Below, in pieces: positions 33,498-58,830 of a stretch of DNA of 64,000 nucleotides (position 1 is its first letter; every line of letters begins with the position of its first letter). Source of the DNA: a bacterium (lineage in GTDB: Bacteria; Fidelibacterota; Fidelibacteria; Fidelibacterales; Fidelibacteraceae). The notes beneath the pieces were generated by a model, which made no database searches, was not told where the DNA came from, and saw only the letters and a program-made list of their open reading frames with translations. The stretch is taken from contig OY781066.1 of NCBI GenBank assembly GCA_963676395.1, positions 2,047,586 to 2,111,585 of the forward strand. Reading direction: 5' to 3'. The translations under genes were made by a program, and so were the position numbers.

Positions 33498-33507
33498 AGG
33501 AAGCATC

Positions 33508-34329: not shown

Positions 34330-34377
34330 CTGGTAGGGAGCGGTTGCAATCGTTCTTTACAACATGAATGTTATAAA

Positions 34378-36944: not shown

Positions 36945-37034
36945 CAGCCTACGGCGATCAGTTATTGCTAAATAGCATGCTGACAGTAATAGGCTGAAGG
37001 CTGAAAGCTTAAAATAATAAAGAGGAGTACATAT

Positions 37035-41704: not shown

Positions 41705-41938
41705 TCAAGATCGATCGTCGGGTGATTCTTCTGGATCTAAAAATTGATCTGAATCGGTATTATTCAGATCATTATTCACCTTTTTGATTTCTTTTGAACG
41801 TAAAATCAAGACAATGAAAATACATAATAAACCCGGAAGAATATACAGGTAGTGTTTAACTGATACGGCAATAAGTATAAAGATTATTGCAAGAACAGCC
41901 AACAGTATATTCAGTAGGGCATAATTCCTTTTTTTCAT
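41705..41938 (-). CDS. small membrane protein (77 aa, two hydrophobic helices)
   Basis: ALLNILLAVLAIIFILIAV and LYILPGLLCIFIVLIL. ATGA overlap with the upstream GDPD gene. Confidence 0.5.
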   Translation of the reverse strand: MKKRNYALLNILLAVLAIIFILIAVSVKHYLYILPGLLCIFIVLILRSKEIKKVNNDLNNTDSDQFLDPEESPDDRS

Positions 41939-42807
41939 TTTTCTCCGTATAATACTTTTCCAACTTCCAGCGGTCTATCTGTTGCAAAGATATCAATGCC
42001 GAGTCTTTCCCAGCGTTTGTACCAATGATCTCCCTTTGCTTCCGCTTTCTTGTCTAAATTACCAAGTGTTCCGCAATTGGCAAAGACTTTTTCTTCATGA
42101 AGCATGTTATAGAGTTTCTTTTTTTGTAAATGTGTACCGGTGAATGCCGTAATGCGGTTCATGGGGATCCCCGCATCCTTTGAGCGTTGTAATTCTTCTT
42201 CAGAGCGGATGGCTAGAGATAACATGAGGTCCTTATCAAGTTTATTGACCTTAACACCATCATTTATATTGTAAACAATGATTAATACATTGGCTTCAGT
42301 ATCTGTTTTATGAACAAGATCAACAACTTTTTCAAAAGGAACCCCGCGCTTGACATCAAGATTTAAGACGGTTTTTCCCTTTGCCCAGATCAGCGCTTTT
42401 TCCAAAGTCGGTACACGAAAATTCGTAAGCTGTCCATTGTTATCTTCCAAAAATAGTTGTTCTATCGTTTTAAAATCGGTTTCATTTACAGAGCCTTCCC
42501 CTGTAGTTGTTCGTTTTAGATTCCAGTCGTGCATCAGTATTAATACTGAGTCTTTTGTAATTGAGACATCCACTTCGAGTGTTGATGGATAATGATCAAG
42601 AATATGGTCAAATGTCTCTATACAATTTTCCGGATAACCCGGATAAGGACCGCCGCGGTGCGCCGAAAGGATGGGCGTGGCGTTTTGTGACCAGGAAAAG
42701 AAATGTTGGATCTCTTCCACACTCTCAAAAGTGAGGTCCGGGACAGGATATGGTGGCTTAGCGACTAATATTGTAGCAATGAGTAAGAATGTTATTAGTT
42801 TATTCAT
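41935..42807 (-). CDS. secreted glycerophosphodiester phosphodiesterase (GDPD) family protein
   Basis: SAHRGGPYPGYPENCIETF, LEVDVSITKD, ILMHD. The ATG at 42807 has an AAGGGA RBS; the ORF-track TTG at 42843 is less likely. Confidence 0.8.
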   Translation of the reverse strand: MNKLITFLLIATILVAKPPYPVPDLTFESVEEIQHFFSWSQNATPILSAHRGGPYPGYPENCIETFDHILDHYPSTLEVDVSITKDSVLILMHDWNLKRTTTGEGSVNETDFKTIEQLFLEDNNGQLTNFRVPTLEKALIWAKGKTVLNLDVKRGVPFEKVVDLVHKTDTEANVLIIVYNINDGVKVNKLDKDLMLSLAIRSEEELQRSKDAGIPMNRITAFTGTHLQKKKLYNMLHEEKVFANCGTLGNLDKKAEAKGDHWYKRWERLGIDIFATDRPLEVGKVLYGEK

Positions 42808-42830
42808 ATTATTCCCTTTTTTATGGATAA

Positions 42831-42860
42831 TGTAAAGACGCAAAATATTGCGTCTTTACA
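42831..42860 (-). terminator. strong stem-loop ending the six-gene envelope operon
   Basis: TGTAAAGACGC / GCGTCTTTACA perfect 11-bp stem with an 8-nt loop, 35 nt after the last stop. The U-tract is weak (TTATCC). Confidence 0.6.
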
Positions 42861-42894
42861 TTACAAATATATTCTGAATCAACACTGATTTAAT

Positions 42895-44250
42895 TTATTC
42901 TTCTCTATCGGGATCTTCAACGACAACGTCATCTACTTTGGTAAATCTTAAAACTCTGTTATTGCCATTATCAAAGGTGTAGAGTACTTCATCGTAAAAA
43001 GTAAGTGCCAAAGGATTGTTCAGGAGATCGGGGTATTGTTGTAAAACAAGTGTATCTTTTACAACAAGAGAATCTCCTATATATGAGGAATCGCTTACTC
43101 TGATCCATTCCTCTCGTACTACGATAGATTTAATGAATTTACCTTGAGCTGAAAACATTTTTACATCACGATCTAATGTATCGAGCACAAAGATGCTATT
43201 ATCGTTTGCTACGGTAATATCTCTGGCATAGCCATAAGCACCCAAACCCATGATGTCATCGATACCAACGAGAAATTGTGTGTTATAAGAACTTGAGTTT
43301 AGTTTATGTACAGAAAAATATTCTCCGGTTTGTGTGTAATAAACACTTCCACCATTATCTGATGCCATTGATATAGGTTGAGAAACCGTTCCGGCACCTG
43401 TTCCGGGTGTAGCGATAAAGTCATCAAGCATACCGGTATACTGCCATACATTTTGACCGTTTTCCAAATGTACCAAGACCGTGGGTACCAGAAGTATTTC
43501 TAAAAGATAATTGTTTATGGCATCTGCCGCATAAATGGACATTTGGTCAGTCGCCGCCGGTGCTAAAGCAACAAATGATTTGTTCTGAGCGGCATAAATA
43601 GGATTTCCCCCAACAATTGTTGTGCCGCTTGCGGTATCAACTAATCCATTTATATTAAGATCGGAGCTTGGATCATAAAAAATTCTTGGTGCCATCATTG
43701 AATCAATAGCGGCAGTGCTTGTACTGTCGATTACTTCTGAGCCTGAAATGGGTGAGTACCCCATGTAGAGTCCATCCAAAGGATGCATGGTAACCGTATC
43801 GGAGCCTACAAGGTAATCCCGTTCAAGCACAATGCCTTTAATGCCGATGGTCGCTACAAATTGCGGCCAGAACCAGATCACATCACTATCATCGGTATAA
43901 TACACATTAAATCTTGCATCTAAACATACCGCAGTCGGAGAAATGTTAAGATGTTTTAGTGAATCATATAAACCGTTTTCCACTTCTCCCGAAGGGCGGA
44001 TAACAGTAATGCTGTTTGCGATAGAATCAGCAATATATATACGTCCGTCTTTAGAAGAAAAGGCATCAACAGGTGTGTGCAGATCCAATTCGCCAAAGGT
44101 CCAATCAGGAGTAATTTGCACATATTTATTAGGATCATTGTTGATCCCGCCGTTTCCACCGCCATTGCTGGGAAGTGATATGTTTTCCGAACAGGAGATC
44201 AATAAGATGATCGTAAATAAGATCAGGGATGTTTTTAATAGATTTTTCAT
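42895..44250 (-). CDS. lipoprotein with NHL/beta-propeller-like repeats
   Basis: Lipobox LLISC. Recurrent hydrophobic-Y-x-x-D strand motifs (RIYIADS, NVYYTDD, SIYAADA, SVYYTQT, SIFVLDT, VLYTFDN). Confidence 0.5.
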   Translation of the reverse strand: MKNLLKTSLILFTIILLISCSENISLPSNGGGNGGINNDPNKYVQITPDWTFGELDLHTPVDAFSSKDGRIYIADSIANSITVIRPSGEVENGLYDSLKHLNISPTAVCLDARFNVYYTDDSDVIWFWPQFVATIGIKGIVLERDYLVGSDTVTMHPLDGLYMGYSPISGSEVIDSTSTAAIDSMMAPRIFYDPSSDLNINGLVDTASGTTIVGGNPIYAAQNKSFVALAPAATDQMSIYAADAINNYLLEILLVPTVLVHLENGQNVWQYTGMLDDFIATPGTGAGTVSQPISMASDNGGSVYYTQTGEYFSVHKLNSSSYNTQFLVGIDDIMGLGAYGYARDITVANDNSIFVLDTLDRDVKMFSAQGKFIKSIVVREEWIRVSDSSYIGDSLVVKDTLVLQQYPDLLNNPLALTFYDEVLYTFDNGNNRVLRFTKVDDVVVEDPDREE

Positions 44251-45212
44251 TAGAAATTATAACTTATTTGAATTTGATTAACGATACCAAGATATATATG
44301 TGGACGAAATGCATAATCGACCGTTAGGCCGGAATTCCATCGCTCAGTTGAAAATCCCAGTCCCATAGAAAAAGGGATCTCTGTTCCTATACAATAACCA
44401 GCGCGGACTTCCACAGCTTCAAAGAGTTTTGCATTCACGCCAAGAACATAGGTTTCATCATTGTCAACCGGGTGATTTAATTGTGCGGATACAAGAAGGT
44501 CCATGAAGTCATTTTCATAAATGGTTATAGAAGAGCCGATATGAAAGGTAGTGGGAGGAGCAAAAGTTGCGTATTCGCGTTCATCTCCATCACTTGAGAT
44601 ATAAGTGCCTGCGGGTCCTGCCGGAGTTCCGAAATTCAATAACGCAACAGCAAGAGTCATATCTTTAAATCCGGTTCTATAGAATGTTCCCAGATCCATA
44701 ACAATGGATGTGGTTGCCATATCAAGGTATTCTTCCCTTACCATTCTTGCTGAAAAACCAAAAGAAAATCGATCGCTCATTTTACGTGAGGCATTTAAAC
44801 CCACATAATAGTCGGCGTATGAAAAATAATCTCCGGAACCGTAGGGATTGTATTCGGTAGTGATTTCCATCGGATCCATGTGTAAGGCGCCAATTTCCAC
44901 ACCGAATGCCCAAGAGCCCATGGTATGAGCAGCCGCAATGTATTCGTAGCCGATACCGTCAAACCATTGTAGGTGGCTCAAACTTACAGATGTTCCCTCT
45001 AATTGCACCGTAATGGCAGGATTCCAATGGATGGCGGATGCATCGGAAACAACCGAAGTAAAAGCACCACCAATGCCGGCTGATGTTGCCGATGGATCAA
45101 TTTTGAGGAAGTTGAAAATAGATGTTCCGGCTCTTTGTCCGCCTAAACCGGCGAATAGCATTGAAGCGCTAAAAAGTAGAACAATTGCGAATTTATGTTT
45201 GTTTTGTCTCAT
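44250..45212 (-). CDS. PorV/PorQ-family outer-membrane beta-barrel protein
   Basis: RAGTSIFNFLKIDPSATSAGIGGAFTSVVSDASAIHWNPA. C-terminus ISYNF (aromatic terminal residue). Confidence 0.7.
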   Translation of the reverse strand: MRQNKHKFAIVLLFSASMLFAGLGGQRAGTSIFNFLKIDPSATSAGIGGAFTSVVSDASAIHWNPAITVQLEGTSVSLSHLQWFDGIGYEYIAAAHTMGSWAFGVEIGALHMDPMEITTEYNPYGSGDYFSYADYYVGLNASRKMSDRFSFGFSARMVREEYLDMATTSIVMDLGTFYRTGFKDMTLAVALLNFGTPAGPAGTYISSDGDEREYATFAPPTTFHIGSSITIYENDFMDLLVSAQLNHPVDNDETYVLGVNAKLFEAVEVRAGYCIGTEIPFSMGLGFSTERWNSGLTVDYAFRPHIYLGIVNQIQISYNF

Positions 45213-45215
45213 TTG

Positions 45216-47915
45216 TTAAAACCTTAAAAAGAGTCCTAGCATGATCTGGCGGGGTGAATAGTAACGGGATGGATCCAAATTGGGATTTCTTCCCGCATAG
45301 TAGGTGTATGAAATGATCTCGCCGGGATCATAAGGTTGACCGGTAAAAGGATTGATCCTTCTGGGTACTTTGTAATTGAAAATATTTTCTACATCGATAT
45401 AAAATCCGTATGTCAGGTTTTTATAATAGAAGTCTTTAGTAAATTTTAGATCAACCGTAATATAGGGATCCGCGATTTCGCCATAGGGATTGTCACTACG
45501 TGAAGTACCAATATACCACATGGTTCCATCAGAGGTAGTTACCGTATCCAAAACTACACTTTCAGTATAGCGTTTTCCCGCTTGTGCTTCAATATGCGCA
45601 TTTAATGACCAGTTGTTAATCCATGGAGAAAGATCATCTTCATACATATGAAGCCTGAGGTTTCCGATCAATCTGAAGGGCTCATCCCATGAAAGATAAT
45701 TCTCGGTCAGAGGTTTTTCGGGGATCATACCTGCTTCAACCAATACATTATCATCGGGTGAGGAGCTTTTACCGGTTGTTACTGAATAGGTAAAAGAAGC
45801 ATCGCCGCTGAAGAATCTACCGGCGGTTTGACGGAACATAAATTCAAGTCCGTAAGAGCGGGCATAATCCATATTTAAATACATCATTAAGCTATAGTTT
45901 CCAACCAAGGGGTTGAAAGATGTAATGGTTTGTGCCGTTTCATAATCAAACATATCTTTGTAATAGGCTTTAAATTCGACGGCCGATGCGGCGGAGAACT
46001 TATGTTTTAGACCGATCTCGTATGCCACGGTTGTTTTAGGATCTAAATTCGGGTTACCGATAAGTGAATAGGGGTTATCTGAAACGGTATTCAATTTGGC
46101 ATAAACATAATTGTAAGTGGGTAGCTGTGAGAAATGCCCATAGTTAAAGTACAATACATCATTATCCGTAACCGGATGAGAAATACCCAAGCGAGGACTC
46201 AGGTGCCCTTTAAATCTTGCACCAAAGAGATTATTGGTTTCATCAAAATAACGTTGCCTACCGGCTTCTGTGATCGTTAAGATATCCGGATTCATCATTG
46301 CTTCGGTGACTTCTTTTCCGATGAACCAGTAATCATAGCGCATACCGATATTTGCGATCATACCTTCGAAAGTGATTTTATCTTGTAGGTAAAAAGAACC
46401 ATCGGAGGGTTTTACATTATAGTAATCATAACTTTCTCCCAAGCCGGAACCCAACCAAGGTTTATAAATATCAATAACCTGCATATCGGTTGAACGGTGT
46501 TCAAAGCCAGCCTTTACTTTATGTCGAGTGCTTGGGTGATAGGTAAAATCAGTCGACAAGGTGAAATTTTTACTCCAGTAGTCATACCAATAGGGTGCAT
46601 CACCATGATCCCAGAACTCATCACCGGTATAAACCACAACATTACCAAATTCATCGCGAGTTGAATATTCGGTAGGATCTATATCAAGAATTTCATCGTA
46701 TTGGGTCCAGTGTTTATTTTGTACGGCTTTATGAAACGAGGTATAAAAGTAGCCGGCATTAACCGTATAAAATAGTTTTGGATTGATAGTATGAGTCCAC
46801 AAGGCATTCACAACCTTAGATTCTGATGTAAAGGTGGGGTAATTATCCAGCATTTCTTGGAATGCATATGGATATGATGATTTTCTAAAATAGCCTTGAT
46901 TGACATTTGCAGACTGGTTATATGAGATGGAAAATTTATATTTTTGTTGATAATTCCAAGAAAGCTTTGCCATGGTGGACATATTGTTCTCTTGACGATT
47001 AGTAAAGACATTCATCCAATCCCGATAGGGATACAGTTTTTCAGAGCCCGGTAAATAGGAGTCGGATAAATATAGATATCCACTGACAAAATATGAAAGA
47101 TACCCGGGAATAAGTTTACTGTTGCCATTGATCAGAGGTCCGCCCAAGGTGAATTCGATATTGTCTGTACCAAAGCCGTTACTTCCAAAAAGCTGGTCTG
47201 TTTTATATCTTGCGGAGCCTTCAAGATTAGCAGCACCTTCTTTTAATTTAACATCAATGATACCTGACATTGCTTGCCCGTATTCGGCATTAAATCCTCC
47301 GGTAATGATCTCTAACTCTTCAATAGCGTTTGAATTAACATACAAACTGGAAGTTTGTCCGGTAAGGGGATCCTTGATTGAAAGTCCATCAACGATGAAC
47401 TGTGATTCGTCAACTCGACCACCCCGGATATGGATTTCGTTGTTTGATGTAGAAACACCGGCTTGCTGACCGACAATATCTGCGACACTTTCAACGATCT
47501 TACCCAAAAGGTCATCGGATGAAACCGAAACGGAAGACGCTGTTGATGTTGCATCGATCAGAGGTTTTTCTCCCACAACCACGACATCTTCGCCAAGGGC
47601 GAGAACAGTTGTTTCCAAGGCGACATCAATTTTAATGGTTTCATCTTGATCTAACTCTATACCACCGTGGATATATTGTTTATAACCGATCATAGAAACC
47701 ATCATATCGTAGGTTCCCTGGCCCATACCTGTGATGGTAAATGAACCATCCATGGATGTTGCTGCCCCGTAATATGTACCTTTGAGGATGATATTTACAC
47801 CTACCATTGGTTCCTTGGTTTCTGCATCGGTGACAACACCACGAATGACAGCTGCGCTTAAAATACAGCTTAAGGTTATTGTTAAAACAGCAATGTACTT
47901 GATAATTTGTTTCAT
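45216..47915 (-). CDS. SusC-like TonB-dependent outer-membrane receptor (CarboxypepD_reg + plug + barrel)
   Basis: IRGVVTDAETKEPMVGVNIILKGT...DGSFTI (CarboxypepD_reg), IHIRGGRVDESQFIVDGLSIKDPLTG (plug), C-terminal LGLFLRF. Confidence 0.85.
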   Translation of the reverse strand: MKQIIKYIAVLTITLSCILSAAVIRGVVTDAETKEPMVGVNIILKGTYYGAATSMDGSFTITGMGQGTYDMMVSMIGYKQYIHGGIELDQDETIKIDVALETTVLALGEDVVVVGEKPLIDATSTASSVSVSSDDLLGKIVESVADIVGQQAGVSTSNNEIHIRGGRVDESQFIVDGLSIKDPLTGQTSSLYVNSNAIEELEIITGGFNAEYGQAMSGIIDVKLKEGAANLEGSARYKTDQLFGSNGFGTDNIEFTLGGPLINGNSKLIPGYLSYFVSGYLYLSDSYLPGSEKLYPYRDWMNVFTNRQENNMSTMAKLSWNYQQKYKFSISYNQSANVNQGYFRKSSYPYAFQEMLDNYPTFTSESKVVNALWTHTINPKLFYTVNAGYFYTSFHKAVQNKHWTQYDEILDIDPTEYSTRDEFGNVVVYTGDEFWDHGDAPYWYDYWSKNFTLSTDFTYHPSTRHKVKAGFEHRSTDMQVIDIYKPWLGSGLGESYDYYNVKPSDGSFYLQDKITFEGMIANIGMRYDYWFIGKEVTEAMMNPDILTITEAGRQRYFDETNNLFGARFKGHLSPRLGISHPVTDNDVLYFNYGHFSQLPTYNYVYAKLNTVSDNPYSLIGNPNLDPKTTVAYEIGLKHKFSAASAVEFKAYYKDMFDYETAQTITSFNPLVGNYSLMMYLNMDYARSYGLEFMFRQTAGRFFSGDASFTYSVTTGKSSSPDDNVLVEAGMIPEKPLTENYLSWDEPFRLIGNLRLHMYEDDLSPWINNWSLNAHIEAQAGKRYTESVVLDTVTTSDGTMWYIGTSRSDNPYGEIADPYITVDLKFTKDFYYKNLTYGFYIDVENIFNYKVPRRINPFTGQPYDPGEIISYTYYAGRNPNLDPSRYYSPRQIMLGLFLRF

Positions 47916-47916
47916 A

Positions 47917-49437
47917 TTACTCGTTTATTTCAAATATGTGTCTGAATAGTTCGTCAAGATTGTTATTTCCTCTTAAATAATACAAAGGAATTGACATATA
48001 GTAACAGGTGCCATCTCCAATGGGAGTTTCGATCATGACTGTTGGTTCACCGGTATAATCACTGGTATTCAATGAGTCGTGTTCAAAATGATATCTTAAT
48101 GTTGAAGTAGCACCGGGTTCAATGGCATATAGTTTATCTGCCAAAGTAGAGGAGGTTTTTAGAGTCAATTCACTATTTAATGTTGAGTCTCCCCAGCTAG
48201 GAATAATATTTACATCCGAATATATACGACCGGTGGGGCTGTATTGATAGACTGTGTCGATATCCGTAAAGGTCCATACCGTGTCGGGGCGTGAGCCGGT
48301 AGCAACTTTTTGAGCGTTATTAACAAACAGTGTACCGCCATCACCAACAAAACGTGTTAAGGCCAAGGAAGCTTCATTTAATGAGTTTGATCCTCTAAAG
48401 GTAAACCAGAAGACGTTGGAAAAAGTACTTAAGTTAAGTTCGATATCTTCAGCGGAGTAGGGAATGGTGTTTGCCGTATTGTTGCTTCCCCCGCCAATTT
48501 CCCAAATAGAATAGTTATTTGCACCCAGTAAACCTTCTACAATACCTGTGTAGAGATTCTGGTGAGAATAAGCTACTTGATCTCCGGGGAAATCATTGAC
48601 GATGAGCATATCACCTTTAGGTTCAATAACTTCCCATGTAAGGATCTCAGATTCATCTGAATTAGGATCCGGGAATGATATTATATCGCTTTCGGCACCA
48701 GCAATATCCTTAACTTTCAGGTAGAAACGATGTCTTCCTGCCGGGATCTCAGTCAGCATGATCTCACTGATATCTCCATCTAATTTAATCCATGTGCTGG
48801 TATCGTCTAAAGCATAAAATACTTCTGTAATAGTTTCCCTTCCGTCAATATCAGAGACATCCCAGAAAAACGAATGGTGCTGGAAAGAATAATGCACTGA
48901 GTCTTCTGTTTTTGAGCTTTGAGGGATAGTGCCGAGTTTCCATTCAACCTCGGGAGGTGAGTTGAAAACCGGAAATGTCGCTATTGCTGGTGTTGGGTCA
49001 ATGGCATTACTGTCATCCACTGCCTGAACATAAAAAGAATACACATCAAGTTGTGTACGTAGCGGTAAATAAAAAATTGCTGATTCGTCCTGTGTGAAAA
49101 TCGATGTATCCATATAGGACCAACGGTAATAGTAGCCGATAACATTGCCATCGGGATCATCTCCCCACCAATGAACTTCTTGGACTGAGATGGTTGTATC
49201 CAATCCCATGATTAATGTATCACCATCTTCTACCCAAACGGTATCTCCGTTATTGATCCAATAATCTCCGGGCCCCAATGTTGTATCGGGATTATAGAAA
49301 AATGAAACATGAGTTTCGGGAGGTAAGTTTCCGGATGTTGAATCAGGTAATTTTGGGTGAAACAGATCGCAGGCAACCAATGACAGTAAAATGATAACTG
49401 CGAATACAACTAATGTTATTTGCTTGGTATTTTTCAT
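47917..49437 (-). CDS. lipoprotein of unknown function
   Basis: Lipobox LSLVAC. Motifs such as HWWGDDPDGNVIGYYYRW suggest Ig/beta-sandwich modules. No catalytic motif recognised. Confidence 0.55.
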   Translation of the reverse strand: MKNTKQITLVVFAVIILLSLVACDLFHPKLPDSTSGNLPPETHVSFFYNPDTTLGPGDYWINNGDTVWVEDGDTLIMGLDTTISVQEVHWWGDDPDGNVIGYYYRWSYMDTSIFTQDESAIFYLPLRTQLDVYSFYVQAVDDSNAIDPTPAIATFPVFNSPPEVEWKLGTIPQSSKTEDSVHYSFQHHSFFWDVSDIDGRETITEVFYALDDTSTWIKLDGDISEIMLTEIPAGRHRFYLKVKDIAGAESDIISFPDPNSDESEILTWEVIEPKGDMLIVNDFPGDQVAYSHQNLYTGIVEGLLGANNYSIWEIGGGSNNTANTIPYSAEDIELNLSTFSNVFWFTFRGSNSLNEASLALTRFVGDGGTLFVNNAQKVATGSRPDTVWTFTDIDTVYQYSPTGRIYSDVNIIPSWGDSTLNSELTLKTSSTLADKLYAIEPGATSTLRYHFEHDSLNTSDYTGEPTVMIETPIGDGTCYYMSIPLYYLRGNNNLDELFRHIFEINE

Positions 49438-49450
49438 AATTTGAAAATGA

Positions 49451-49476
49451 TCCGCCTCTTCCGAAGAAGAGGCGGA
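49451..49476 (-). terminator. intra-operon stem-loop with UUCG tetraloop (attenuator or RNA-stabilising hairpin)
   Basis: Minus strand UCCGCCUCUUC-UUCG-GAAGAGGCGGA, perfect 11 bp, then UCAUUUUC and the next ATG only 13 nt away. Confidence 0.6.
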
Positions 49477-49491
49477 TACTATCCTAAACTC

Positions 49492-52143
49492 TTATTTTAA
49501 GAGTACAAGTTTGTTTGTAGCGGTGAATTCGGGTGTTTCGATACGATAGAGATACATACCTGATGAGAGGTGTGCGGCATTCCAACGTAAGTCGTAAGCA
49601 CCGGCATTCATGCTGGTGTTGACCAATTCTTCAACCAGACGACCTGAGATGTCATAAACTGACAATTTTACGTCTGTGGCACTAGCCAATTCAAAACGAA
49701 TGGTAGTTACAGGGTTGAAAGGATTGGGGAAGTTTTGATGCAATGCAAAGCTTGAAGGTATATCGGAAATTGCATCAGGAGGTGTTTCCATAAGTGTTAC
49801 ATCACCGTTTTTACGAACTTCGATCTTGATACTGCCATATGAGTACATGACAACACCTTTAACGGCGGCAAGTGAATCACCGGTAACCAAAGTATCGTTC
49901 CCAACAACAACATTTTCTTCATAGTTGATAACCATAACAGAATCTGCAACACAATCATCATCAAGTAAAAATGAGTTTGTACCATCGGTTAGTGTCAAAT
50001 CGTAACTGTTGATAGATCCAATTACCAATGGTGCTTCCAATTCAACCAGAACACCTTCGAATGATTCGGGATTAGCTTCCAATTCTGCAAGTGTTGCAGG
50101 GGTGGTACCAAGGGGACCTTCACTTAGTTTTAGAGATACTGAGCCGTCAACATAAGTATTGGTCTGGTACTTCCAGTAAGCTTCATGGTCATCATCAACT
50201 TTACCGGTTACGGTAACCAAGTCACCTTCAACGAGTGAGGCAATTTCGCTTGCAGGGGCAAGAACCCAAACACCGTTCCACGCACCTGTTGCAGAGGCAA
50301 CAGGGAAAGCGCATTTATCGGCTGAATTTTTAAATGTAGCCATATCTGCACCATCACTCATCATGTAGGCATCGAATGTTACATTGCAACCATCTAGCGG
50401 ACTTTTACCGCTTGCAGCGTGTGTATATTGAATGTCGTATACACTTACATTACCATCAATGACTTTGTATGTAAAGTAATTACTTTCTTCATAATTTGAA
50501 GGAAGTGCAGATACATCGCTTGAATCATCAACAACATAGTAATAGTATTCAACAATAGCGTCATCAGCTTGCGCAGGGATAACACCTGTCCAGATATTGC
50601 CTGTACTTTCAGTCATATTTACAGATGTAAAATCACCATCGTTGACTTTGTAATATATTTTTGCAGTGTCAATGTTTCTCAACGTTGAGATAAGAACATT
50701 GGCTGTAACGGTTTGAGTAGGTGTTGGGATATTAGCCGGTGTTCTTGAAGGGTTCAAGAGCATAGCAGGACCTTCACCCAAAACAATGTCTTCTTTGTAA
50801 AGCGGTTCGATTTTGTATGTTGTAGAATCGACATGAGAACCATAGTGATGATAGATCCATCCGGTGACAGATTCAATCGGGGTCATTACCGGAGGAGCAA
50901 GATAATCTTCCAAACTATCAGAATCACTGTCTACAAGGATATCACCTGAGCCATCATCAATGCCCATAATTTCGTATTGTGGCGTATTATTTACAACCAA
51001 GGCATTTTCAATTTTTACAATATTGTTACCCCATTGTTCGGCTGTAAGAGGTATACGAAGATCACCGGTTGTTACAACTGCTGTATCAGGAAGAGCGCTA
51101 ACGCCAACAACGTTGACGTCGCCAACCAAGAAGAATTCAGTCATATTTGCAGGTGAAGTAGAATATTCACCGACATAACCGCTCATTTCAATGAGATCAG
51201 TGGCAAATAAGTCAGGATATACCGAAGCATCCTGGTTGTAGGATAGAATACATGACCAAGGACCGCCGTGTACATCTGATAGGATGAACTTAACACCATC
51301 TCCGGCATACGATAAACCGGTAGGCATGGTAACAACGCCTTTAATGTGGAAAGTTGTATCGGCAGGGTTATCTCTATCGGCACCTTCATCAAAGTAAGAT
51401 TTATCTGATTCGCCGTCTTTTAGTGCTTTCATAAGATCAGAGGCGCGAACTTGCTGAATTCTTTGAATACGAGTGTAAATTTTTGTTCCACCTTTTAAAG
51501 GACCTTCGATAATATCCCATGCCAGGCGAGGTAGGATTTTAGGATTATCGTAAGAGTAATTCATAACACCTGTAATTGAAATTAATGAATCATATTCATC
51601 TTGCCAGAAATAATATGGTGCTTGACCTTCGTCGTCAACCATAACTGAATCTGTCGCATCGCAAACTTCCCATTCACCGTAGCTTTTATCGGGATTAGAG
51701 ATAGCTACATTTTTTAAACTGACAAGTACAGATTCATATTCTTCAAGTTTTGCATCGGCAGCGCTTAATACTAGTGGAGCAGGGCAACCAACACCGGCTT
51801 GTTCAACAACAACGGCTGTAACATCTTTAAGTCTTGTCATACCGTAGTTTTCATGTGTTGTACCTGAAATTGTGACCGAATCACCTTCAGCAACGATCGT
51901 CGTATCACCAACGAAAGATGAAATATTAGCACCGAGCTTGATATATAGTCCGCTCCAAGGGCCAGTACCGTCCTGAATAAACATGTAATCGCCACCCAAG
52001 GCATATGGTTCAACGGTAACAACACCGGAAACCGTTACAGCGGTTCCTTCGGCAACTGTACCTTGTTGGATATCACTGATCGTGGTCGCAAAAGCTGATA
52101 CGGCCAAGACGAGTGATATCATAATGATTAGAAATTTTCTCAT
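49492..52143 (-). CDS. large modular secreted protein with a T9SS C-terminal sorting domain
   Basis: Signal peptide ending AFA. C-terminus FPNPFNPVTTIRFEL...VYDISGRLV...GMYLYRIE...KLVLLK. Repeated IQ...G..V.V.G.V modules. Confidence 0.8.
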   Translation of the reverse strand: MRKFLIIMISLVLAVSAFATTISDIQQGTVAEGTAVTVSGVVTVEPYALGGDYMFIQDGTGPWSGLYIKLGANISSFVGDTTIVAEGDSVTISGTTHENYGMTRLKDVTAVVVEQAGVGCPAPLVLSAADAKLEEYESVLVSLKNVAISNPDKSYGEWEVCDATDSVMVDDEGQAPYYFWQDEYDSLISITGVMNYSYDNPKILPRLAWDIIEGPLKGGTKIYTRIQRIQQVRASDLMKALKDGESDKSYFDEGADRDNPADTTFHIKGVVTMPTGLSYAGDGVKFILSDVHGGPWSCILSYNQDASVYPDLFATDLIEMSGYVGEYSTSPANMTEFFLVGDVNVVGVSALPDTAVVTTGDLRIPLTAEQWGNNIVKIENALVVNNTPQYEIMGIDDGSGDILVDSDSDSLEDYLAPPVMTPIESVTGWIYHHYGSHVDSTTYKIEPLYKEDIVLGEGPAMLLNPSRTPANIPTPTQTVTANVLISTLRNIDTAKIYYKVNDGDFTSVNMTESTGNIWTGVIPAQADDAIVEYYYYVVDDSSDVSALPSNYEESNYFTYKVIDGNVSVYDIQYTHAASGKSPLDGCNVTFDAYMMSDGADMATFKNSADKCAFPVASATGAWNGVWVLAPASEIASLVEGDLVTVTGKVDDDHEAYWKYQTNTYVDGSVSLKLSEGPLGTTPATLAELEANPESFEGVLVELEAPLVIGSINSYDLTLTDGTNSFLLDDDCVADSVMVINYEENVVVGNDTLVTGDSLAAVKGVVMYSYGSIKIEVRKNGDVTLMETPPDAISDIPSSFALHQNFPNPFNPVTTIRFELASATDVKLSVYDISGRLVEELVNTSMNAGAYDLRWNAAHLSSGMYLYRIETPEFTATNKLVLLK

Positions 52144-52165
52144 CTGTTTTCTCCTTGTTTGTATA

Positions 52166-54316
52166 CTATTTTATTACAAGAAATCTGCCGGTTTTTATGT
52201 AACCGTTAGATTCATTTTCGACTGCGAAAATATACATACCTGTTGCAAGCGCTTGATCGTGGTCCGTAATAAGATCCCAAGCATGTTCTCCGCCGGCATA
52301 TGCGGTGTTAGAACTTAGGCCTTCTTGTAAGCGGCGGGTTTCACTTCCGGTATAGGTAGCTGCATCATGTTCAATGGTTTTCACCAATTCACCGGATATA
52401 GTAAAAACTCTGATCGTCGCTTTTGCCGGTAGACCGGTAAACCAGATCATTCTGTCACGTACACCTGAGCCATCCCATAATGCATTAACGCGGTAAGGGT
52501 TAGGATATACACCAACTTCCGTTTCTTCGTCTTCAATGGATTGTTGACCGGTGATAACGGTGATCTTATTCTCTAATTGAGACGATTCAAGAGATTCAAG
52601 TCCGGTTCGAGCGTCACCTCGATCAAATGAAGTGACCGCAAAGATATTTTTATCGGGCCAGCCGTTTAAAAGATTGGCATTTTCGAATTTGTAATAAAAG
52701 GTGTCTTGTCCAAAGATCTCGTAAGATGGATTTCCTAATTCATCTTTAATACGGATATAGTCGAAACCCGTATTGTATCCAAGTTCATTCTTCAAGTCAA
52801 AGGTGGCAAGAAGTGTCCATTCGGCTGCTAACTGAGATGTTTTACGACGAGCGTAAACTTTGTAGCCTTCAAAATCTTTTTCACGAGAAATAGGATCTTC
52901 GGCAAATTCCGGGATATTGTTCCAATATAGTGTGACTTTACCTTTTTCGGGGACAACATGCAGTTTGGGTGAGGGAGGAGGTGCAGGAAGGACGAAACGA
53001 TTTAATATGCCATCACCATTCTGATCTTCATTGATCTCTGGATCCAAACGGCCATTTCCATTAACATCTTCGCCGTTAAATGCTTTTTGTGCCCAGTCTG
53101 CATTTACACGTAGAAGTGAACGACGAGCGGGAGTGTCATCGGGACCTTCGTTGGCCCATTGACCGCAAACGATGGCAAAAGCGACATCAATAGCTTGTCC
53201 GGGCTGAATTTCCCATGAGGAGCTATCCGGAGTGGCAGGCTGAGTTCCAAAAGGCCCGGCCGAAACCAGGATCATCCATGAGGCAGGTTTTGATGGATAA
53301 CCGGCATCTGTATAGTCCGATTCTCCGGGATGTTTGGGGACTGAATGACTTAACTTGTCATAACGTTCTTCATCGGTTAATGGCATAAAGTATTCTGGAT
53401 AATCCATATCTAATGAGGTATTCCATTTCCATTGATCGTAATGTGTATCCCAATAGGCACGCGGTACCGTTTCGGTACCGAGAAAAGTAAATCCCACATA
53501 GGATTGGGCGTATCCGTTATCACCATCTTGATCAAACTGGTAAGCGATATCTCTTTCCAATCCTTCAAACGAATCATCGGGAATTGGATCAAAGATGGAT
53601 TCATCATATCCATTTTGATTATCATACCAGCTCCAACCGCCACCGGGTTCATATATACTGGTATAATTCATATTACCTACGGCGGCATCTGCCCAAATAC
53701 CTACGTAGGCATCATTGATGATATCAGAACCGATATTGGTAATGTGATAGTTAAGGATCACAAAAGCATCCGTAAACGAGAAGTTCCAAGTATAAGTAGT
53801 AACATCAACCTGAATATTTAGAGGTTGGTGATCGACCACTTCACCTTGATCATGGAATGTTGCTTTGAAATCCTGATGCGATATGGCGTAAGGTGAGTAA
53901 ACCTTTGAAGTTGGTATAGATGAACGCTCAAAAATAGAGTCACCGTTATCGGTGAATTCAAATCCGGCTGAACCGTAATCAAAAACACCATCTACAACAC
54001 CGGTACTTACGCGTTTTTCCCCATTGATCTTGCCGCCGACCCATAGACCGCCGTAAGACATATGTTCAACTTGTTCCTTCAAGTTGTCGGGATATTGTTT
54101 ATACATACAAGAAGGCTGGTTAGGGTTGTTGTAACCCTCACCGATCACACCAAAGTTCGTAATTGTTAAACCGAGTTGTCCTACTGTAGTATAATGTACA
54201 TAATCCGCCACTGATGCGGAAGCTTTGGCCAAAGGCGCCGGATAGCGATCATTGGCAAAGGATTGACCTGCTAATATTAACAGAACAAATAGAAGAATTG
54301 GGAGCTGTTTTTTCAC
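52166..54316 (-). CDS. secreted protein with a T9SS-type (FlgD-Ig-like) C-terminal sorting domain
   Basis: GTG start with AGAGGA RBS and a signal ending SFA. C-terminus VYPNPY...ATIRVFTISGELV...GMYIFAV...GRFLVIK. Acidic loops DVNGNGRLD and DQNGDGILN look like Ca-binding sites. Confidence 0.75.
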   Translation of the reverse strand: MKKQLPILLFVLLILAGQSFANDRYPAPLAKASASVADYVHYTTVGQLGLTITNFGVIGEGYNNPNQPSCMYKQYPDNLKEQVEHMSYGGLWVGGKINGEKRVSTGVVDGVFDYGSAGFEFTDNGDSIFERSSIPTSKVYSPYAISHQDFKATFHDQGEVVDHQPLNIQVDVTTYTWNFSFTDAFVILNYHITNIGSDIINDAYVGIWADAAVGNMNYTSIYEPGGGWSWYDNQNGYDESIFDPIPDDSFEGLERDIAYQFDQDGDNGYAQSYVGFTFLGTETVPRAYWDTHYDQWKWNTSLDMDYPEYFMPLTDEERYDKLSHSVPKHPGESDYTDAGYPSKPASWMILVSAGPFGTQPATPDSSSWEIQPGQAIDVAFAIVCGQWANEGPDDTPARRSLLRVNADWAQKAFNGEDVNGNGRLDPEINEDQNGDGILNRFVLPAPPPSPKLHVVPEKGKVTLYWNNIPEFAEDPISREKDFEGYKVYARRKTSQLAAEWTLLATFDLKNELGYNTGFDYIRIKDELGNPSYEIFGQDTFYYKFENANLLNGWPDKNIFAVTSFDRGDARTGLESLESSQLENKITVITGQQSIEDEETEVGVYPNPYRVNALWDGSGVRDRMIWFTGLPAKATIRVFTISGELVKTIEHDAATYTGSETRRLQEGLSSNTAYAGGEHAWDLITDHDQALATGMYIFAVENESNGYIKTGRFLVIK

Positions 54317-54351
54317 TATAATCCTCTGTTTCCAAGTGCTAAGATAAGGGC

Positions 54352-54369
54352 ATTATATAGCAATGTCAA
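54352..54369 (-). promoter_or_regulatory. candidate extended -10 promoter of the six-gene operon
   Basis: Minus strand TTGACATTGCTATATAATG, i.e. TGC-TATATA/TATAAT, about 35-50 nt upstream of the GTG at 54316. Confidence 0.45.
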
Positions 54370-54937: not shown

Positions 54938-54967
54938 TTGACAGATTATTTAAAATAAGGATAATAT
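54938..54967 (+). promoter_or_regulatory. strong sigma70-like promoter about 190 nt upstream of purB
   Basis: TTGACA (54938-54943), 17 nt, ATAATA (54961-54966). Confidence 0.45.
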
Positions 54968-55160
54968 GTTTAAGGTTTTAAGTATAATAAGTATCAGTCG
55001 TGTTCTAAACCTATATAAAATTGGTTGCTCATTATTTATAATTAATAATTCAATATTCACTATTCATAATTGCCTTAGGAGAATTGTTGCATTATATTTC
55101 AGCGTGGATGGTGAATCGCTCGATTTGCCGGGTAAAAGGGTAAAAAGTAAAGGATCAGAG

Positions 55161-56519
55161 ATGTTAAAAGCAATTTCTCCTCTCGATGGCCGTTATTTAA
55201 AGCGAGTCGAGGTGCTCGGTGATTATTTCTCAGAATTTGCATTGATGGGCTCACGCGTATGGGTTGAGTGTCAATTTTTGCTGGCTTTAGATAAAACAGG
55301 ACTTTTTGATCCTCTCAGTTCGCGTGAGATTAAGAAGATCCAAAAGCAACTTGAATTATTTACCGAAAAAGATTATTTGGCAATTAAAGAAATTGAAAAG
55401 ACCTTAAATCATGATGTAAAGTCTTGTGAGGTTTTTTTAATTAATACCCTTGGATTAAAACATCCTAATATGATCCATTTTGGGTTAACATCCGAAGATG
55501 TTAATAATCTTTCTCATACATTATTATTAAAAAGGTACCGCGATGAAGTCCAGCTTCCCGCCTTATCGGATTTTTTAGGCTTTCTTGCCGGAAAAATTAA
55601 GGAATGGAAAAGCATTCCTATGCCGGCTAGAACGCATGGCCAAATGGCTTCACCAACCACGGTCGGAAAAGAATTTGCCGTGTTTGCATCTCGTATACTG
55701 CGTCAGTATTCAGCACTGAAAAATTTCACCTTTAGAGGTAAGTTAAACGGTGCTACAGGTAATTATTCTGCCTTTACATCTGCCTCTAAAGATGTTGATT
55801 GGATAAAGTTTTCAAAGGATTTTATTGCCGGGATCGGCTTAGATATTAATCCTGTGACAACCCAGATCGAAGATCATGATAATTGGGCGGAATATTTTTT
55901 CCTGACAAAAATGATCAATACCATCTTGATTGATATGAATGAAGATATGTGGGTTTATCTGATGTTGGGATATTTAAAGCAAGAAGCAAAAACCGGAGAA
56001 GTAGGCTCTTCGACCATGCCTCATAAGGTTAATCCAATAAATTTTGAGAATTCTGAAGGTAATTTAGGCATCGCCAACTCATTGCTTGAACATTTTACAA
56101 GCAAACTTAGTCGCTCACGTTTACAACGTGATCTTTCAGATTCTACCGTAGAAAGAAATTTTGGTGTAGCACTTGGTCATACACATCTTGGTTTGGTTGA
56201 AACTATGCGAGGATTGAAAAAGCTTACCGTGAATGTTGAGTTTTGTGAGAGTGAGTTACATCGTTATCCGGAGTTATTGGCTGAACCTATTCAGACAATC
56301 TTACGTCGAGAAAATTTTGCTAATCCCTATGATGTAATGAAAAATCTTACGCGAGGAAATGATTTTACAGTCGCAAATTTGAATAAGTTCATTGATACAC
56401 TTAAAGTTGAAGATAAAACCCGTATGGAACTCTCACAATTGAGGACATATTCTTATGTTGGCCTGGCGGAGAAAGTCTGCGATGACCTATTGAAAGAGTT
56501 GAAGAGTTTAGGGTTCTAG
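55161..56519 (+). CDS. purB: adenylosuccinate lyase
   Basis: MLKAISPLDGRY..., SSTMPHKVNP. The ATG at 55161 is preferred; the ORF-track start at 54966 adds 65 non-homologous residues. Confidence 0.93.
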   Translation: MLKAISPLDGRYLKRVEVLGDYFSEFALMGSRVWVECQFLLALDKTGLFDPLSSREIKKIQKQLELFTEKDYLAIKEIEKTLNHDVKSCEVFLINTLGLKHPNMIHFGLTSEDVNNLSHTLLLKRYRDEVQLPALSDFLGFLAGKIKEWKSIPMPARTHGQMASPTTVGKEFAVFASRILRQYSALKNFTFRGKLNGATGNYSAFTSASKDVDWIKFSKDFIAGIGLDINPVTTQIEDHDNWAEYFFLTKMINTILIDMNEDMWVYLMLGYLKQEAKTGEVGSSTMPHKVNPINFENSEGNLGIANSLLEHFTSKLSRSRLQRDLSDSTVERNFGVALGHTHLGLVETMRGLKKLTVNVEFCESELHRYPELLAEPIQTILRRENFANPYDVMKNLTRGNDFTVANLNKFIDTLKVEDKTRMELSQLRTYSYVGLAEKVCDDLLKELKSLGF

Positions 56520-56761
56520 AGCTTCGTTTAGTTTGTCGGATTGATTCATTCTACATTGAGCGGGTGAAAAATCGAACGGTTGGGTAGGTATAGATTGAAA
56601 CGACTTAAACGCTTAAGAACATCCGAACAGGAAAAAAGGATATTTGAAGAATTATCATCAATATTTTCTGCGGTGGTATGCTATCGGACCACTTGCATTC
56701 GTATTCTCTAGATAGAAATTAAAAGTGATAGATTATTATTTTAAACGAAAAAGGTTTTGAT

Positions 56762-58021
56762 ATGAATATTGTCGTAATAGGCTCCGGTGGTCGAGAACAT
56801 GCTCTAGTTTGGAAGTTGGAACAATCACCTTTGGCAGAAAATGTTTTCGTTTTGCCCGGAAATGGCGGTACTAAAAACAATGTTGATATTGATGCTTCAG
56901 ATATTGATGCTTTAAAAGCATTTTGTGAAAAAGAAAATGTATCTCTTATCGTTGTTGGACCTGAGATCCCTCTTGCAGATGGAATTGTGGACGCTTTTAA
57001 TGATTCGAATGTGTTAGTTTTTGGTCCGGATAAAGCAGCGGCTCAATTGGAAGGTTCTAAGATCTTTTCAAAGAAATTCATGCAGAAGCATGGTGTTGCT
57101 ACAGCGGATTTTAGGATATTCACAGCAGCAGATGATCCTGTAGGTATGATCAAAGATTATGAAGGCAATGTAGTTATTAAATATGATGGCCTTGCTGCCG
57201 GTAAAGGTGTGTATGTTTGTTCATCTGAAGCTGAAGCTTTCGAAGCGGTAAATGATATCAAGATAAAATATGGTCAGGATGCCGAGTATATCATGGAAAC
57301 CAAGTTTTATGGTCAGGAATTGTCGATAATTGGTATTACAGACGGTAATGCTATTTCCTGTTTACTACCTTCACAAGATCATAAAGCTGCTTTTGATGGC
57401 GATAAAGGTCCCAATACCGGTGGTATGGGTGCTTATTGTCCGGCTCCTTTGGCGACAGACGAATTACTAATGAAGATAGATGATACAATTATTTTACCCA
57501 CTTTGAATGGTATTGAGGCAGAAGGTTTTAATTATAAAGGCGTGATCTACTTTGGTATTATGCTTGATGAAGATGGCGAACCTAAATTACTTGAATATAA
57601 TGTGCGTTTTGGTGATCCCGAAACCGAGGTGATCCTTCCTTCGTTGAAAAGTGATCTGTTAGAACTTATTCTTGCTGTTTTTGATGGTTCTTTGGGGGAC
57701 ATGGAATTGGAATTCAACGATGGATATTTCGTTGATGTTGTACTTACATCTGGTGGTTACCCCGGAGCCTATGAAAAAGGAAAAGAGATCACAGGTCTTG
57801 ATAATCTAAGTGCAGATACTATATGCTTTCATGCCGGAACGAAAGAAAGAGATGGAAAGTTGCTTACATCCGGTGGACGCGTATTAAATATCGTTTGTAA
57901 AGATAGAAGTCTTGAAAATGCTGTTAATAAATGCTATGAAGAGATATTGAAAGTAGAATTTAAAAACATGGCATATCGTAATGATATTGCCCATAAGGCT
58001 TTGAATCAATCATTAAGATAA
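56762..58021 (+). CDS. purD: phosphoribosylamine-glycine ligase
   Basis: MNIVVIGSGGREHALVWKL, ATP-grasp core, EYNVRFGDPE. Confidence 0.95.
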   Translation: MNIVVIGSGGREHALVWKLEQSPLAENVFVLPGNGGTKNNVDIDASDIDALKAFCEKENVSLIVVGPEIPLADGIVDAFNDSNVLVFGPDKAAAQLEGSKIFSKKFMQKHGVATADFRIFTAADDPVGMIKDYEGNVVIKYDGLAAGKGVYVCSSEAEAFEAVNDIKIKYGQDAEYIMETKFYGQELSIIGITDGNAISCLLPSQDHKAAFDGDKGPNTGGMGAYCPAPLATDELLMKIDDTIILPTLNGIEAEGFNYKGVIYFGIMLDEDGEPKLLEYNVRFGDPETEVILPSLKSDLLELILAVFDGSLGDMELEFNDGYFVDVVLTSGGYPGAYEKGKEITGLDNLSADTICFHAGTKERDGKLLTSGGRVLNIVCKDRSLENAVNKCYEEILKVEFKNMAYRNDIAHKALNQSLR

Positions 58022-58088
58022 CCTAGGGGACGGTCTGGCCCGCTCTGCATAAAAAATATACCTTGGATTTTAATTCAAGGGAAACAGG

Positions 58089-58826: not shown

Positions 58827-58830
58827 AACT

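Follow-up and report, generated by a model that had tools for sequence, protein, structure and literature searches.

To our knowledge, nearly all that is understood about TonB-dependent uptake in the Fibrobacterota-Chlorobiota-Bacteroidota (FCB) group comes from SusCD-type systems, and the outer-membrane barrels of the PorV/PorQ family are known only as type IX secretion system (T9SS) shuttles and anchors. It is established that PorU and PorZ remain bound to PorV and PorQ, respectively (PMC10947112, PMC12704123). The T9SS of Porphyromonas gingivalis also includes PorF (PG0534), a barrel resembling TonB-dependent receptors; its role is unknown, full secretion of gingipains depends on it, and its authors have speculated about an import function (PMC5445135, PMC12704123). 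In the literature that could be searched, the domain DUF5689 is mentioned in just two works; it occurs in DdbD, a product of the ddbABCDEF DNA-utilisation locus of Bacteroides thetaiotaomicron (PMC12478041), and in RA0C_RS04920, which is essential for natural transformation in Riemerella anatipestifer (PMC8459023). Each of these proteins is partnered with a CarboxypepD_reg TonB-dependent transporter (PMC12478041, PMC8459023); DdbD has been modelled as a DNA-binding, p202-like subunit of its transporter, and lipoprotein signals are present on DdbA, DdbE, and DdbF (PMC12478041). Here we examine a six-gene operon (g1 to g6) within a 64,000-nucleotide stretch of a Fidelibacterota contig (GenBank OY781066.1, assembly GCA_963676395.1, positions 2,047,586 to 2,111,585), referred to below as the window, that brings together a TonB-dependent transporter, a PorV/PorQ-type barrel, two proteins with T9SS C-terminal domains (CTDs), and two lipoproteins. 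On balance, we favor the reading that the operon encodes a TonB-energised import complex of the outer membrane whose assembly is assisted by the T9SS and whose substrate is most likely extracellular nucleic acid.

The window has a G+C content of about 39%, and its closest protein relatives are labelled Candidatus Marinimicrobia, Neomarinimicrobiota, or Fidelibacterota. The genes of the operon, in the order of the reading direction, are as follows:

52166-54316, minus strand: g1, 716 amino acids, GTG start; putative secreted protein with a divergent T9SS CTD
49492-52143, minus strand: g2, 883 amino acids; putative secreted protein with a T9SS type-A CTD
47917-49437, minus strand: g3, 506 amino acids; predicted lipoprotein
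45216-47915, minus strand: g4, 899 amino acids; predicted TonB-dependent transporter
44250-45212, minus strand: g5, 320 amino acids; predicted barrel of the PorV/PorQ family
42895-44250, minus strand: g6, 451 amino acids, with a start that overlaps the g5 stop by 1 nt; predicted lipoprotein

Computed from these coordinates, the junctions are 22 nt (g1-g2), 54 nt (g2-g3), 1 nt (g3-g4), 3 nt (g4-g5), and -1 nt (g5-g6), in exact agreement with an earlier account of this DNA made from its letters alone (the sequence-only reading), which had listed the same six open reading frames (ORFs) running from 54316 to 42895. A g3-profile scan of one genome per GTDB species showed that at least 567 genomes encode a g3 relative, and the loci of the best 80 of these were examined together with three distant loci (L082-L084) whose g3 proteins are 26-30% identical. 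For the genes that fit on the respective contigs, the order g1 to g6 on one strand was kept in 80 of the 80 loci, 46 of which hold all six genes, and it was also kept in the three distant loci. The hosts of the 80 loci are labelled Marinimicrobia/Fidelibacterota, KSB1, or Calditrichota, with some evidently mislabelled metagenome-assembled genomes (MAGs) in addition; a further locus, from a KSB1 genome (L001), has the same six genes in the same order. Because each of the related loci examined shows the same genes in the same order, the arrangement lies far outside what chance would produce. The flanks outside the six genes are not conserved among loci; a clustering of the flanking ORFs was dominated by antisense shadow ORFs and was disregarded. 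In one distant locus, L084, IS200/IS605-type Y1 transposase genes and small ORFs (478-927 and 11318-11854) lie within and beside the operon, between g4 and g5, with the gene order intact. The expectation that the gene order would be conserved in relatives thus held strictly and across phyla, and the statement that it resembles no described system also stood, as no characterised polysaccharide utilisation locus (PUL) or gliding locus was matched in the libraries and literature searched. Across loci, the median junctions are -1 nt for g3-g4, -1 nt for g5-g6, 13 nt for g4-g5, 54 nt for g1-g2, and 76 nt for g2-g3, and the g3-g4 gap is at most 10 nt in 90% of loci. These medians overturn the earlier suggestion that the PorV paralogue g5 is co-translated with the transporter g4, as the tight couplings are instead g3 to g4 and g5 to g6.

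The g4 protein matches the CarbopepD_reg_2, Plug, and TonB_dep_Rec models above their cut-offs (Plug, 41.6 bits against 23.9; barrel, 75.9 bits against 27). Its layout consists of an N-terminal CarboxypepD_reg domain, a TonB-box-like EDVVVVGEKP that precedes the plug and is conserved in the g4 family, the plug itself, and a 22-strand-type barrel. The SusC/RagA model TIGR04056 gives 63.6 bits against a cut-off of 368.25, in a match limited to residues 24-502. The best PDB matches of the g4 family profile are PhuR, Cir, PirA, and FepA, and SusC is matched through its 85-residue N-terminal domain only; a single-sequence PDB search returned no match for g4 or g2. By these profile scores, g4 is a predicted TonB-dependent transporter with a SusC-like domain order that does not belong to SusC/RagA, so that the domains assigned in the sequence-only reading were recovered and the SusC/RagA type was not. 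Pfam and NCBIfam searches of the operon and its flanks found no SusD, PorU, or PorZ-type protein, as had been stated earlier for SusD and PorU. The g5 protein scores 141.7 bits with the PorV_fam model NF033709 (cut-off 90) and falls below the three equivalog cut-offs, namely PorV (NF033710, 44.7 against 250), PorQ (NF033711, 81.9 against 220), and PorV2 (NF052325, 46 against 325). Its family profile has a single significant PDB match, PorV of Flavobacterium johnsoniae (6h3i_F, E 9e-18), and matches to PF19572 are on record for g5 orthologues in L001 and L082-L084. The PorV/PorQ-like assignment of the earlier account is confirmed by these searches, and g5 is predicted to represent a distinct subfamily of PorV/PorQ-family outer-membrane barrels. 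The last residue of both g4 and g5 is Phe, as is typical for beta-barrel proteins of the outer membrane.

Homologues of g4, g1, and g5 also adjoin one another in four settings other than the six-gene operon, with scores of 221-253 bits for g4, 73-133 bits for g1, and 88-123 bits for g5; other CarboxypepD_reg transporters in the same loci match g4 with about 46-66 bits only. A tblastn search of plasmids with g4 gave one outstanding match, on pRMAR01 of Rhodothermus marinus (E 5e-71; L085), where the g4 homologue scores 253 bits, the g1 homologue matches with E 1e-24 (hhalign 99.9%, E 7e-35), and the g5 homologue scores 93 bits. On this plasmid, the locus adjoins a type III-A CRISPR csm cluster. 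The chromosomes of Rhodothermales (L086, L087) carry the same five-gene module in highly conserved form, with an FG-GAP-CTD protein, a g1 homologue of about 1130 residues, and an Amidase_2-CTD protein, which suggests capture of peptidoglycan fragments. Two further arrangements were found through divergent members of the g1 family. The gene orders are:

L085, R. marinus pRMAR01: FG-GAP-CTD protein, transporter, 1132-aa g1 homologue, PorV/PorQ protein, peptidoglycan-recognition/Amidase_2 protein
L088, 2628-12283: transporter, ExbB, ExbD, ExbD, TonB, g1-like protein, PorV-like protein
L091, in one MAG: transporter, g1-like protein, PorV-like protein, CTD protein, M6 peptidase with a CTD

The transporter g4, the CTD-bearing g1, and the PorV/PorQ-type g5 are thus a co-inherited core trio. 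That the trio stays constant while the secreted hydrolases around it change follows the logic of a utilisation locus, and the ExbB-ExbD-TonB genes inside L088 argue that the g4-type barrel is an energised transporter.

The g1 protein carries a signal peptidase I (SPI)-type leader, read from the sequence, followed by a large beta-sandwich, a Ca-binding-like acidic loop that has a PPPSP linker, an FN3-like domain, and a T9SS CTD that is divergent and contains an insertion. No Pfam family matches any of 42 members of the g1 family, no PDB entry matches g1 by sequence or by family-profile search, and neither NCBIfam nor Pfam has a model for g1 or for g3. The AlphaFold model of g1 is all-beta (pLDDT 74), and a fold search with it returned weak, low-TM matches only, to beta-sandwich and Ig folds and to the N-domains of GH63, GH116, and GH94 enzymes; because the matches are confined to such low-TM folds, no enzyme function was assigned. 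The g1 CTD itself has no Pfam or TIGRFAM match, but the last 120 residues of the protein are homologous to the g2 CTD (hhalign 96%, E 3e-9), and the C-terminus weakly matches that of PorZ and contains a VYPNPY motif and a terminal FLVIK. The earlier statement that both secreted proteins end in T9SS-type domains stands above family cut-offs for g2 and is likely for g1, given its profile-profile homology to g2. The g1 CTD is conserved as strongly as the rest of the protein and has many invariant residues, which fits a retained docking domain rather than a discarded signal. The family is large, with 5152 clusters at 50% identity (E<=1e-3), 460 of them with E<=1e-30; many representatives match best in their C-terminal part, which comprises the FN3-like domain and the CTD.

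The clue to the substrate comes from g2, which has an SPI-type leader (read from the sequence), three predicted modules of OB/DUF5689 type (residues ~20-215, ~220-450, and ~550-775), an Ig-like domain (~455-548), and a T9SS type-A CTD (805-880) that matches Por_Secre_tail PF18962 with 42.2 bits (cut-off 27) and TIGR04183 with 44 bits (cut-off 23). Among 25 g2 orthologues that can be aligned over their full length, the type-A CTD is matched in all 25, the OB-fold family PF01336 in 19, and DUF5689 (PF18942) in 13, several of the last above the cut-off (33.7, 34.0, and 30.5 bits against 28.6). The three modules of about 200 residues are mutually homologous (hhalign 99.3-99.9%), and a search with the g2 family profile leads to a solved EEP nuclease, in its N-terminal OB region (9sf8_A, E 6e-9), as well as to the N-domain of ExeM/NucH nucleases. 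The sequence-only reading had called the g2 CTD correctly and lacked the OB/DUF5689 modules, which tie the operon to the DNA-uptake systems of Bacteroidota. Genes for secreted nucleases or phosphodiesterases lie in or beside the operon in 12 related loci, as counted over the flanks that reach 1.5 kb or more upstream (48 loci) or downstream (41 loci). Genes for EEP nuclease-like proteins that carry a T9SS CTD adjoin the operon in 10 loci and in three placements; in seven of these (L059, L060, L067, L068, L071, L076, and L080, all from marine Marinimicrobia), a gene encoding EEP, lamin-tail, and CTD domains forms a seventh operon gene on the same strand, directly upstream of g1 and ending at the g1 start (e.g. 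L060:1975-3771). In L082, the operon is followed by genes for a PLD/NucT-like CTD protein, a 5'-nucleotidase, and a Bmp nucleoside-binding protein, and in L084 an NPP phosphodiesterase gene is inserted between g3 and g4. These neighborhoods support a nucleic-acid substrate independently of the domains of the g2 orthologues.

Lipoboxes were read from the sequences of g3 (LVAC|D) and g6 (LISC|S). The g3 protein consists of two FN3/Ig-like domains with DxDxDG-type motifs and a C-terminal ThuA-like alpha/beta domain, which has no conserved catalytic Cys or His among the invariant columns of the family. Foldseek with its AlphaFold model (pLDDT 87.6) returned tandem FN3 domains and the ThuA-like protein 4e5v; a search of the PDB with the g3 profile matched titin FN3 alone. 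The g6 protein, the least conserved of the six gene products, has weak NHL and ScyE matches, and faint NHL matches occur in its orthologues, so g6 is probably an NHL-type beta-propeller lipoprotein.

The noncoding parts of the operon contain three candidate regulatory features:

54341-54369, minus strand: tentative promoter-like sequence upstream of g1, with TTGACA at 54364-54369 and TGCTATATAAT at 54352-54362 / TATCTT
49450-49477, minus strand: intra-operon hairpin in the g2-g3 spacer, with a 12-bp GC-rich stem and a TTCG loop, followed by CATTTTC; -23.9 kcal/mol
42827-42864, minus strand: hairpin after the g6 stop, 17 bp including one G-U pair, with no T-run after it; -24.8 kcal/mol

Both hairpins that had been noted earlier were borne out, the 11 perfect pairs first described after g6 being the core of the 17-bp stem. 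A hairpin was counted as strong when the best 45-nt window reached at most -15 kcal/mol; such a hairpin is present in the g2-g3 spacer of 96% of 70 related loci (median -25.4 kcal/mol). Coding controls pass the same threshold in 3% of cases, g1-g2 spacers in 21%, and the regions after g6 in 17%. The sequences of the g2-g3 hairpins differ between loci, and only the presence of a stem is kept. Some copies are followed by T-runs and others by A-runs. The internal structure of the operon is thus conserved as g1 and g2, a hairpin, and then the coupled pairs g3-g4 and g5-g6. The g2-g3 hairpin is likely an attenuator or an mRNA-stabilising element, maintained by selection, that separates g1-g2 from g3-g6, and the hairpin after g6 likely marks the end of the transcript. 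A scan for sigma-70 promoters and terminators found no more candidates than shuffles predict, and both large hairpins, which have no T-rich tails, escaped it. Upstream of g1, a ribosome-binding site (AGAGGA) lies at 54322-54327, and a consensus scan lists TTGACA-17-TATCTT. The extended -10-like sequence reported earlier is present; its role as a promoter is unproven because sigma-70-like matches are not enriched (33 found against 40 expected from shuffles).

Taken together with known T9SS and TonB mechanisms, these features suggest how the encoded complex might work. The g1 and g2 proteins would be exported by the T9SS through their CTDs, and g5 would then hold both by these domains, neither released nor anchored to lipid, as PorV holds PorU and PorQ holds PorZ. 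Such retention is suggested by this analogy, by co-inheritance, and by the unusual conservation of the g1 CTD. The proteins held by g5 would be placed beside the transporter g4, for which g1 and g5 would fill the role that SusD fills for SusC. Because their translational coupling is conserved, g3 may pair with g4 and g6 with g5 as lipoprotein subunits of the same assembly. With its three OB/DUF5689 modules, g2 would catch the substrate, for which extracellular nucleic acid is the most likely candidate given the resemblance of the modules to DdbD and RA0C_RS04920; in some lineages, neighboring T9SS-secreted nucleases would cut the nucleic acid, after which TonB would draw its fragments through g4. 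The hairpin after g2 probably sets different levels of expression for the surface proteins g1 and g2 and for the membrane core g3-g6. The sequence-only reading had already proposed a capture and import module in which T9SS cargo takes the place of SusD. This proposal gains support from the recurrence of the trio with varied hydrolases and, once, with ExbB/ExbD/TonB.

Several observations weigh against a nucleic-acid importer. The g2 protein of the window itself has no DUF5689 match at E<=0.1, and the assignment was transferred from orthologues that align over their full length. In every one of the 25 orthologues the OB modules have a strongly acidic composition (median pI 4.05-4.14, net charge -9 to -10 per 100 residues), which makes the substrate uncertain and disfavors simple electrostatic binding of DNA unless divalent cations bridge the two. 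Most loci, the window included, have no nuclease, the neighbor in the window being a GDPD-family phosphodiesterase. Neither g3 nor g6 shows the Bacteroidota export signal C(x/xx)(D/E)(D/E). Finally, g1 and g4 are very highly conserved across phyla, more than is usual where a locus serves one nutrient, and this would also fit a core envelope function.

One alternative is a lineage-specific accessory or attachment module of the T9SS that imports nothing, in which g4 would be PorF-like, g5 PorQ-like, and g1 and g2 CTD-retaining subunits of the PorZ/PorU kind. PorF provides the precedent of a TonB-receptor-like barrel within the P. gingivalis T9SS, PorQ-PorZ and PorV-PorU are pairs of a barrel and a CTD protein (PMC10947112), the best equivalog match of g5 is PorQ, and the operon is very highly conserved and apparently near universal within these phyla. 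We nevertheless consider this account unlikely: g1 and g2 have no C25-like sortase domain or PorZ-type propellers and match PorU/PorZ in their CTDs only, the trio variants carry differing hydrolases as utilisation loci do, and ExbB-ExbD-TonB within one variant points to energised transport. Rhodothermales, moreover, reportedly carry canonical T9SS genes, to which their trio would be additional. The same machine could instead import muropeptides, which exceed the porin size limit and would therefore need a TonB-dependent transporter, and so serve as the outer-membrane muropeptide importer of Marinimicrobia and relatives. Fidelibacter multiformis, the only cultured member of the Marinimicrobia, and the whole class AB16 lack peptidoglycan synthesis and live on exogenous muropeptides (PMC11652737), loci of the AB16 clade carry the operon (L014 '46_43', L058 'M50B103', and L051 'TCS60'), and in Rhodothermales the paralogous trio comes with an Amidase_2/PGRP enzyme secreted by the T9SS. 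However, the six-gene type has no amidase, lytic transglycosylase, or LysM/SPOR-type domain, its recurrent neighbors are nucleases and phosphodiesterases, and g2 is made of OB/DUF5689 modules. The operon is also equally conserved in marine SAR406, KSB1, and Calditrichota, whereas the dependence on muropeptides is limited to anaerobic sub-lineages of Marinimicrobia (PMC11652737), and a muropeptide substrate is a serious but, in our judgment, unlikely alternative.

Uptake of DNA for natural transformation rather than nutrition, with the operon as the counterpart of R. anatipestifer RA0C_RS04915/04920 in Marinimicrobia and relatives, would agree with the finding that a DUF5689 protein and a CarboxypepD_reg transporter are both essential for transformation in that species (PMC8459023), with the broad conservation, and with the absence of a nuclease from most loci, which would favor import of intact DNA. 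The repeated recruitment of nucleases, a 5'-nucleotidase, an NPP phosphodiesterase, and a Bmp protein points instead to degradation and salvage, no com genes (comEC, dprA) were seen in the flanks of any locus, and competence is unknown in these phyla, which makes a role in transformation quite improbable. Utilisation of a polysaccharide by a PUL analogue appears more improbable still. Weak CBM56 matches fall in the Ig-like domain of g2 (8 of 25 orthologues), the beta-sandwich of g1 has a weak likeness to the glycoside hydrolase N-domains named above, and g3 combines the fold of ThuA ('trehalose utilisation') with tandem Ig domains like those of surface glycan-binding proteins. Yet the CBM56 region fits peptidylarginine deiminase, in its Ig-like domain, no less well, TM-scores of the fold matches are about 0.2, and PULs are known to vary, in contrast to the strict conservation seen here across phyla. 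Among the more than 80 operons examined, none contains a glycoside hydrolase, lyase, or esterase, and no such enzyme recurs beside them, the sole case being an unrelated GH115 gene about 3 kb upstream of L001.

The surroundings of the operon in the window were annotated as well. On one flank lie genes for a GDPD-family protein, a DUF4180 protein, an aldo-keto reductase, and BioY, and on the other, divergently oriented, purB, purD, and purN; since these are unrelated housekeeping genes, the six genes form a discrete unit. Scans of the window for tRNAs and Rfam families gave no match. The nearest downstream neighbor is:

41935-42807, minus strand: gene for a secreted GDPD-family phosphodiesterase (Pfam GDPD and NCBIfam), starting with ATG at 42807, directly downstream of the operon after the terminal hairpin

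The GDPD gene is retained at this position only in close relatives (L002, L004-L006, L009, and L010) and may be an accessory phosphodiesterase of the operon, or its position may be mere inherited synteny. A run of purine-biosynthesis genes on the plus strand (purL, purH, purC-E through purB, purD, and purN; 30510-38414 and 54966-59403) is broken by the operon and four small minus-strand genes. A functional tie between the operon and these flanking genes was considered and rejected, as the adjacency of purB/purD is confined to close relatives (L004, L008, L009, and L010) and does not extend to KSB1 or the distant loci. Within the purine run, one ORF of 459 residues (37035-38414, plus strand) fuses SAICAR synthetase (PurC, residues 14-248) to AIR carboxylase/PurE (306-434), a domain order like that of animal PAICS and unusual in bacteria. 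The aldo-keto reductase (39303-40222, minus strand) is split into two overlapping ORFs of 141 residues (profile positions 2-112) and 183 residues (117-286) and is a frameshifted pseudogene or a sequencing error. Elsewhere in the window, a 418-residue ORF without a Pfam match (4333-5589, minus strand) matches BamG, a family belonging to the Bacteroidota-type BAM complex, with 131.5 bits (equivalog cut-off 250, not reached) and adjoins a TPR protein (3041-4318) and a second unannotated ORF of 418 residues (5582-6838), which hints at a Bacteroidota-like set of BAM accessory proteins in this phylum. The two adjoining 418-residue ORFs (4333-6838) were compared and are not paralogous.

The operon links TonB-dependent uptake genetically to the PorV/PorQ family, and the trio follows one transporter clade through at least four lineages. 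If the complex exists, it would show how bacteria without SusD build surface capture devices, provide a function for the g1 family with its more than 5000 sequence clusters and no Pfam domain, give TonB-receptor-like T9SS components such as PorF a testable role, and point to a way in which Marinimicrobia, KSB1, and Calditrichota take up extracellular DNA or muropeptides. These lineages are abundant and mostly uncultured in the dark ocean and in sediments, where dissolved DNA is a major pool of phosphorus and nitrogen. More broadly, and as a tentative proposal that we regard as possible rather than probable, the trio may define a hitherto unrecognised, phylum-spanning class of 'T9SS-assembled utilisomes' in which a PorV/PorQ paralogue permanently docks a CTD protein on a TonB-dependent transporter and the substrate-specific T9SS cargo (a nuclease, amidase, or protease, together with binders) is swapped; the six-gene subtype would then be the main apparatus for capture and uptake of extracellular DNA in Marinimicrobia, KSB1, and Calditrichota, for nutrition or transformation. 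Were this so, abundant deep-ocean and sediment lineages would gain a defined role in environmental DNA turnover. Rhodothermus marinus, which carries the trio, is cultivable and genetically tractable, so the model is directly testable.

Among the systems described to date, the operon comes close to the DdbCD and RA0C_RS04915-04920 pairs, with which it shares a CarboxypepD_reg TonB transporter and, by the assignment from g2 orthologues, a DUF5689 (OB/HIN-like) surface protein; with ddb it also shares a PUL-like operon of about six genes and nucleases in or beside the locus (here in the 12 related loci). The likeness of g4 to DdbC and RA0C_RS04915 is one of shared CarboxypepD_reg and transporter architecture alone, and a tblastn search of the plasmid collection found no ddb-like locus. 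In contrast to its Bacteroidota counterparts, which are not described as CTD proteins, g2 has three modules, an SPI leader, and a T9SS CTD, and the PorV/PorQ paralogue, g1, and the lipoproteins g3 and g6 have no ddb counterpart. The loci analyzed here further differ in having no nuclease in the conserved core, very acidic OB modules, and hosts from other phyla. As in SusCD utilisomes and PULs, a TonB barrel with an N-terminal carboxypeptidase-regulatory-like domain is encoded in one operon with surface binders and enzymes, and enzymes are swapped modularly around a conserved transport core. Unlike SusC, however, g4 fails the SusC/RagA model and has no SusD, its partners being T9SS CTD proteins presumably held by a PorV-like barrel rather than surface-exported lipoproteins, and order and sequence are conserved across phyla to a degree unusual for PULs. 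The PorV-PorU and PorQ-PorZ pairs of P. gingivalis likewise combine a PorV/PorQ-family barrel with CTD surface proteins and show that barrels of this kind are able to retain uncleaved CTD proteins at the cell surface; the present operon differs from the T9SS attachment complex in lacking a sortase and PorZ propellers, in the scores of g5 below all three equivalog cut-offs, and in the genetic tie of the barrel to a TonB-dependent transporter and, in one case, to ExbBD-TonB. By its description, PorF resembles g4 as a TonB-receptor-type barrel linked to the T9SS, but porF has not been reported in an operon with a PorV paralogue or CTD proteins. No description of the operon, the trio, or the g1 family was found in the searchable literature. 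The combination is thus new, whereas its working mode is that of known TonB-dependent utilisation and its anchoring principle that of the known T9SS.

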